Shown one piece after another: positions 14,649 through 14,952 of a stretch of 64,000 bases of DNA. The notes under the pieces were generated by a model. The model made no database searches. It worked only from the letters and a program-made list of their open reading frames with translations, and had not been told where the DNA came from. A program made the position numbers and the translations under genes. The DNA is from Pseudomonas phage Pa_AttikonH10. Each line of letters starts with the position of its first letter. The first letter of the stretch is position 1. The stretch is taken from sequence record PQ741806.1. The stretch is one strand, 5' to 3'.

Positions 14649-14952
14649 CGTTATGTTCAGGTAAGTTCGCTACGCTTACCCCGCCTCTCGTATTGCAGGC
14701 AGCTGCATGTCACCATGCAGACCAGACTATATCTTAACCTTCACCCTAGGTGGTCAGGTCCCTCCCATTTCCACTCGCTTGAGTGTACTCCGCGTAACCG
14801 GATAGTCGTTGAACGTTCAATCCATTTCTGGAAAGCTTCGCTGCTGATTGTCTCATTGAGATGTCCCAGCAATTAGAGAGGATTTACTTGACTCTTTCGA
14901 GATCAAGCAGGCAATTTGACAATATCCATTCCTGAGAGATGGATGGATATTA
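14649..14952 (-). ncRNA. Group I self-splicing intron (ORF-less, 304 nt) in the RNAP beta gene
   Basis: On the minus strand: P AAUUGCUGGGA, Q AAUCAGCAGC, R GUUCAACGACUAUC, S AAGAUAUAGUCUGG. 5' exon ends in U (AAU|UAAUAUCC). Intron ends CUGAACAUAACG (terminal G). Confidence 0.8.

Follow-up and report, generated by a model that had tools for sequence, protein, structure and literature searches.

In Pseudomonas phage Pa_AttikonH10 (PQ741806.1), the non-virion RNA polymerase (nvRNAP) has a beta-like subunit whose C-terminal half is encoded by a gene broken into two reading frames, raising the questions of what separates the two halves, at which base they are joined, and whether the separating element can still move. 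To address these questions, a stretch of 64,000 nt of this phage (the window) was analyzed. The upstream minus-strand ORF, 14950..16149(-), encodes 399 aa and ends in DFHGGN before its stop codon. The downstream ORF, 13725..14627(-), lies in a frame that stays open in the 5′ direction up to 14648, and approximately 300 nt without a long ORF separates the two. The first ATG of exon 2 is found at 14627, seven codons past the junction, so that the exon lacks a start codon at the junction itself. The flanking genes correspond to the phiKZ gp70-gp75 block and the split gene to phiKZ genes 71 and 73. Across the 2.4-kb gene region, the DNA is 100% identical to KTN4, kmuB, PA32_GUMS, and many other members of Phikzvirus phiKZ, and PA7 also shows 100% identity across the gp71-73 gene. 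The intron-bearing DNA thus belongs to a jumbo phage of the phiKZ species, in which gp71-73 forms the C-terminal half of the beta-like subunit of the nvRNAP (PMC4666361; PMC8287921).

Taken as a whole, the locus is very probably explained by a 307-nt td-like IA2 self-splicing intron that interrupts gp71-73 of a phiKZ-species phage and has lost its endonuclease. The earlier note on this DNA presented the intron as a notable find; it is the well-known group I intron of phiKZ genes 71/72/73, predicted in 2002 by Mesyanzhinov et al. (as cited in PMC10914365), and the joined product, present in PDB 7OGP, is an established subunit of the solved nvRNAP. The gene, the insertion site, and the exon flanks are the same in phiKZ and in the window, and beyond intron nt 26 the two ribozymes show 99.6% identity. 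The two differ in that phiKZ carries the gp72 insert and the window allele does not, with a few bases changed around the deletion point.

Ribozyme identification and fold

An Rfam scan (cmscan) of the whole window gave three matches above the gathering score of 50 bits, all to RF00028 (group I). The match at 14703..14931(-) scored 84.2 bits (E = 5.9e-20) and covered the full model, 1-253, without truncation. The 307-nt intron RNA has an MFE of -97.1 kcal/mol (z = -2.97), and none of 100 dinucleotide shuffles folded as low. A complete P1 to P9.2 fold with a terminal G can be drawn (Table 1), in which all 91 intron pairs are canonical, as are the three exon pairs of P1. The group I core is present from P3 to P8, including the P4 (P/Q) and P7 (R/S) pairings. 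The Rfam match and the complete td-like fold with its 91 canonical pairs establish the intron as real, and 14649..14955(-) is a genuine group I ribozyme, far beyond chance. The earlier note had recognized P, Q, R, and S elements of a group I intron on the minus strand of the beta gene and had pointed to Rfam models as a check; both the covariance model and the pairings bear out this reading.

Table 1. Features of the gp71-73 locus and of gp55 in the window. Numbers are window positions unless given as intron nucleotides (nt); intron nt n lies at window position 14956-n.
Feature	Position or sequence	Strand	Basis
nvRNAP beta C-terminal-half gene, exon 1 (phiKZ gp71 part)	14956..16149	-	ORF list
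Exon 1 3′ end codons	GAT TTT CAT GGT GGT = DFHGG	-	sequence
Group I intron, 307 nt, td-like subgroup IA2, without ORF	14649..14955	-	Rfam; intron-less allele; PDB 7OGP chain C; P1 U·G wobble
P1 5′ strand, exon GGU (14958-14956) plus intron AAUU (14955-14952)	14952..14958	-	pairs with nt 40-46
P1 3′ strand (internal guide sequence), nt 40-46, AAUUGCC	14910..14916	-	sequence
P1a extension hairpin, nt 5-35, 11 canonical pairs	14921..14951	-	phiKZ alignment
P2 hairpin, nt 47-71, GAAA tetraloop	14885..14909	-	pair list, MFE fold
P3, nt 75-80 with 190-195; span encloses P4 through P7.2	14761..14881	-	Rfam alignment, pair list
P4	nt 85-90 with 109-114	-	Rfam alignment, pair list
P5	nt 95-105	-	Rfam alignment, pair list
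P6/P6a, GAAA loop	nt 115-143	-	Rfam alignment, pair list
P7 (3′ strand AUAGUC)	nt 149-154 with 226-231	-	Rfam alignment, pair list
P7.1	nt 155-166	-	pair list
P7.2	nt 171-184	-	pair list
P8 (nt 196-220), J8/7, P7 3′ strand	14725..14760	-	Rfam alignment, pair list
P9 (GUGA loop), nt 236-253; span from P9 to tail	14649..14720	-	Rfam alignment, pair list
P9.1	nt 254-275	-	pair list
P9.2	nt 276-296	-	pair list
Tail UGAACAUAACG	nt 297-307, omega-G at 14649	-	sequence
Exon 2 (phiKZ gp73 part), stop codon included	13725..14648	-	sequence, ORF list
Exon 2 5′ end codons	AAG GGC GTC = KGV	-	sequence
gp55 intron A, ORF-less, RF00028 88.9 bits	29377..29681	-	Rfam
gp55 intron B, ORF-less, 493 nt, RF00028 79.0 bits	28776..29268	-	Rfam
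nvRNAP beta′ N-terminal gene (phiKZ gp55), three exons	29682..30818, 29269..29376, 28557..28775	-	

Within P1, the end of exon 1 and the start of the intron pair with the internal guide as G-C, G-C, U·G, A-U, A-U, U-A, and U-A, the wobble lying between U-1 (U14956) and G44. The T2P variant and the HEG+ alleles retain the 5′ strand of P1. P10 is short: the first two bases of exon 2 (AA) can pair with U43 and U42, giving 2 bp only, next to 3 bp in the exon part of P1.

The P7.1 and P7.2 hairpins between P7 and the 3′ strand of P3, the P9.1 and P9.2 hairpins, and the identities with the T4 td intron, whose 3′ half aligns, place the intron in the td-type IA2 subgroup. Judged by sequence and predicted fold, it belongs fully to the group I family and, within it, to the td-like IA2 type. 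T4 td (IA2, I-TevI) has the same architecture, with P7.1/P7.2 and P9.1/P9.2. Its P7 strands ACGACUAU and AUAGUCUG and its P9 CUGCAUGGUGACAUGCAG are identical to those of the window intron, the tail UGAACAUAAxG is common to both, and the 3′ 84 nt are approximately 80% identical. T4 td likewise splits a conserved enzyme motif, although in a different host gene (thymidylate synthase); its P6 loop contains the gene for a GIY-YIG endonuclease, and its P1, P2, P3, and P8 sequences differ from those of the window intron.

Comparison with related introns supports the fold. A 313-nt variant found in T2P, U1B, U5, and phi9_PA9 is 93.9% identical to the window intron. In the T2P variant, 13 substitutions are present, eight of them at paired positions, and none breaks a pair. 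In P2, C55:G64 is replaced by U:A, a double compensatory change, and the P9 loop remains GNRA (GUGA to GCGA). The paralogous gp55 intron A forms the same set of helices from different sequences in P2, P3, P7.2, P8, P9.1, and P9.2. Changes on both sides of a helix were observed there in P2, P3, P7.2 (C-G to G-C twice), and inner P8, as well as in P9.1 (C-G to U-A) and P9.2 (G-C to A-U). P4 to P7 and P9 carry no covariation signal of their own because they are invariant among the compared sequences; their support is the Rfam model.

Position of the splice junction

The 5′ splice site lies after U14956, and the 3′ boundary is G14649, with exon 2 beginning at 14648 as the earlier note had placed it. 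The intron is 307 nt long and separates the codons for G393 and K394. Its removal joins the exons in frame into 2118 nt encoding 705 aa, with the same junction as in PDB 7OGP chain C, and restores the motif of GRHGNKGV type in the beta-like gene inside which the earlier note had located the interruption. The predicted spliced junction is GGU/AAG (in longer form, CATGGTGGT/AAGGGCGTC; here and below, the slash marks the junction).

Several lines of evidence bear on this position. A search by tblastn with the spliced peptide recovered an uninterrupted gene in vB_Pae3705-KEN49 (PP456877). This intron-less allele reads CATGGAGGG/AAGGGAGTT, encoding DFHGGKGV (longer stretch, GATTTTCATGGAGGG/AAGGGAGTTATC), and its CDS of 2118 nt equals the summed length of exon 1 and exon 2 and matches the spliced ORF across the junction. 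The phiKZ gp71-73 chain in PDB 7OGP, 7OGR, 8QUE, and 9RJS reads MTDFHGG-KGVICKV, without Asn. The junction in these structures could represent a design choice rather than a measurement, because the chains may derive from recombinant constructs; this concern does not extend to the KEN49 allele or to the homologues. HHBS36_1, an unclassified jumbo phage of P. aeruginosa (302 kb), has DFHGGKGV in its uninterrupted homologue, and the uninterrupted homologue of 201phi2-1 has DFFGGKGV. With DFHGG/KGV, the two conserved lysines stand 8 apart and correspond in a HMMER alignment to E. coli beta K1065 and K1073, K394 of phiKZ being the equivalent of K1073.

The RNA itself points to the same bases. At the 3′ end, the intron closes with AACAUAACG/AAGGGC, placing a G at 14649 as the omega-G. 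At the 5′ end, a U·G wobble is formed only at 14956 and not at 14953, since U14953 (nt 3) pairs with A41. Only the combination 14956/14649 provides both U(-1) and omega-G, and the intron is therefore 14649..14955. Boundaries slid by 1-2 nt, which would give the same mRNA because intron and exon 2 both start with AA, were rejected. The long hairpin of the MFE fold at nt 4-36 was likewise rejected as P1: the G of its wobble U4·G36, which is G33 when counted from the intron start of the earlier note, is a U in phiKZ and T2P, and this P1 would yield a frame-shifted product or NCV. The pairing of GGU with AAUUGCC fits the intron-less allele instead.

The earlier note had described a 304-nt intron at 14649..14952, spliced after U14953 to give DFHGGN-KGV. 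Exon 1 would then also end in U and join in frame, and the resulting GNKGV resembles the GNKGV of E. coli. This placement is nevertheless hardly credible: the KEN49 allele, PDB 7OGP, and three uninterrupted homologues all lack the Asn, U14953 faces A41 rather than a G in P1, and the additional residue would set the conserved lysines 9 apart instead of 8. The 3′ end of that intron stands, while its 5′ end is off by 3 nt (one codon) because exon 1 had been run up to the stop codon, the last sense codon being AAT (14953). The 5′ end is 14955 and the joined peptide DFHGG/KGV.

The practical value of the 307-nt assignment lies in annotation. In most phiKZ-like GenBank records, the halves appear as separate 'hypothetical' or 'RNA polymerase' CDSs, or exon 1 is run to the stop codon within the intron. 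The junction GGU/AAG (DFHGG/KGV) permits one joined CDS, and the boundary shift of 3 nt together with this joined annotation are useful corrections. The current understanding of group I introns and of the phiKZ polymerase is unchanged.

Splicing and the nvRNAP polypeptides

Group I introns are removed by a two-step, guanosine-initiated chemistry that is standard for the family, and a U at -1 is required for splicing. We infer the self-splicing of the ORF-less allele from this family. In the folded pre-mRNA, the exon end GGU would pair with the internal guide AAUUGCC (U-1·G44), and an external guanosine bound in P7 would attack after U14956. The terminal G would then fill the G site, and the 3′-OH of exon 1 would attack after G14649. 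Joining of the exons would produce DFHGG-KGVICKV and restore the double-psi beta-barrel motif just before its second conserved lysine (K394). By this scheme, the phage would have to splice the intron to make its middle and late polymerase.

Evidence on the product comes from phiKZ. In native nvRNAP purified from infected cells, mass spectrometry identified gp71-73 as one polypeptide of 74 kDa (PMC4666361). Long-read ONT-cappable-seq of phiKZ gave no reads supporting splicing at gp56, gp72, or gp179 under the conditions of that study (PMC10914365). This absence is at odds with what was seen at the protein level; coverage or kinetics is a likelier cause of it than a lack of splicing. The sequencing result, together with the frequent splitting of RNAP genes in jumbo phages, would suit a gene that is truly split, its two ORFs translated separately and the ribozyme an inactive relic. 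We consider this very improbable, given the single native polypeptide, the missing start codon for exon 2 at the junction, a break that falls between adjacent residues of a catalytic-core motif, and a ribozyme core that is intact, with all changes between lineages preserving structure. Yakunina 2015 and de Martin Garrido 2021 use the name gp71-73 and mention neither the intron nor the basis of the junction (PMC4666361; PMC8287921).

Two further group I introns, which the earlier note missed, lie in the same window in the beta′ N-terminal gene, gp55 (Table 1). The spliced gp55 product is 487 aa long, with junctions HRN/PTLQ and KAPN/ADFDGD as in PDB 7OGP chain A, and intron B sits directly before the catalytic DFDGD motif. 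With two introns in gp55 and one in gp71-73, the phage needs three splicing events for its nvRNAP. The gp55 introns are paralogous to the gp71-73 intron: P4-P6, P7, and P9 are nearly identical, and both genes are interrupted in nvRNAP core motifs, whereas P1, P2, P3, P7.1, P7.2, P8, and P9.1 differ. The near-identical P4-P7 and P9 of the gp71-73 intron and gp55 intron A are contained in 14741..14872(-) and 29454..29615(-), and both introns yield the same pseudo-ORF (MLGHLNETISSEAFQKWIERSTTI...). Its annotation as PHIKZ072.1 in phiKZ is probably spurious. From their sequences, these two introns look like paralogues that spread within one genome.

A group I intron at a catalytic motif of a jumbo-phage RNAP is also found in PhiPA3, where the gp210 intron interrupts the virion RNAP beta gene (PMC11620839). 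It is a mobile intron of the HNH-endonuclease type (Birkholz et al. 2024, PMC11620839). The two cases differ in polymerase, virion versus non-virion, and in insertion site; in PhiPA3, gp210 is present and has a role in competition between phages (PMC11620839), and the window intron encodes no endonuclease.

Alleles, probable endonuclease loss, and mobility

The spliced query was compared with a phage collection, and 46 phiKZ-like records were recovered, some of them RefSeq/GenBank duplicates. The 307-nt ORF-less allele of the window type was present in 35 of the 46 (KTN4, PA7, SL2, and others) and is the commonest form in the databases. A 313-nt ORF-less allele was found in four records (T2P, U1B, U5, and phi9_PA9), a 278-nt allele in one (PaZh_1), and a 1218-nt HEG+ allele in five (phiKZ in two records, OMKO1, fMGyn-Pae01, and FBPa36). 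One record, KEN49, has no intron, so that intron-plus and intron-minus alleles coexist within this set.

Agreeing with the earlier note's description of the intron as ORF-less, the window intron holds no endonuclease ORF; its only ORFs, of 43 aa and 53 aa, have no Pfam match. Without an endonuclease, it does not qualify as a mobile intron in its current form. These small ORFs, including the equivalent of phiKZ PHIKZ072.1, were rejected as spurious, having no Pfam match and overlying P5-P8. In phiKZ, the P1a loop is enlarged by a 911-nt insert encoding gp72 (951-nt gene, 316 aa), whose frame runs on through the 3′ strand of P1 and through P2 to a stop at nt 70-72. The Pfam matches of gp72 are weak, at 24.1 bits for HNH_3 (cut-off 24.8) and 20.2 bits for NUMOD4 (cut-off 23.4). 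The annotation of FBPa36 names the gp72 ORF an HNH homing endonuclease, and gp72 is treated as such in the literature (PMC12676376). A 2025 preprint reports that orf72 can be deleted from phiKZ (PMC12676376), and a difference in HNH endonucleases between KTN4 and phiKZ was already noted (PMC4908380).

The window intron would have lost this HNH homing endonuclease, gp72, which phiKZ carries in the P1a loop, and as a consequence would be a passive, vertically inherited ribozyme. The T2P-type intron (L007 1402..1714) keeps an FBPa36-type ribosome-binding site and ATG (TAGGAGGTGAGATG), joined to an 8-codon remnant of the 3′ end of the endonuclease gene. The retained ribosome-binding site, ATG, and remnant argue for loss of the HNH gene by internal deletion in the T2P type. 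The window-type allele has a different deletion junction, and the ORF-less forms seem to have arisen through two deletions of the endonuclease gene, independent of each other.

Compared with the window, KEN49 (L003 2689..2730) and the HEG+ phage OMKO1 agree in exon haplotype; only four bases, all synonymous and lying at -4, -1, +5, and +8 from the insertion point, set them apart. The insertion flanks read GGA GGG/AAG GGA GTT in KEN49 as opposed to GGT GGT/AAG GGC GTC. The differences at -4, +5, and +8 could be a co-converted flank or differences in the endonuclease target site. The KEN49 allele is a candidate for a naive or cleavage-resistant homing site of gp72. At least one natural isolate without the intron, KEN49, is thus a ready target for gp72 homing tests.

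The near-identity of the OMKO1 and KEN49 haplotypes points to an intron gained or lost here recently within the population. It speaks for a reading in which the intron is still mobile in this phage, its transfer driven in trans by an endonuclease from another locus or from an HEG+ relative infecting the same cell. Such mobility is unlikely: the endonuclease ORF is absent from the intron, and an ancestral or cleavage-resistant site in KEN49 would leave the same pattern. A broader proposal, which we regard as quite unlikely, holds that the phiKZ population is midway in a homing cycle at this site, where HEG+ alleles, an intron-less allele, and two types that appear to have lost the HEG independently occur side by side. 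It further holds that the three splicing steps might time or quality-control the entry into middle and late transcription, in a phage whose transcripts are made in the phage nucleus, apart from where they are translated. The missing spliced long reads would then be a sign that splicing is slow or regulated, not that it fails to occur. A passive, endonuclease-free intron remains our preferred reading of the window allele.

In PaZh_1 (MN871489, UNVERIFIED_ORG; L006 402..679), a 29-nt deletion removes intron nt 82-110, and with them the 5′ strand of P4 and P5. A ribozyme lacking these elements should be inactive, and the gene is essential; the deletion therefore probably stems from an error in sequencing or assembly.
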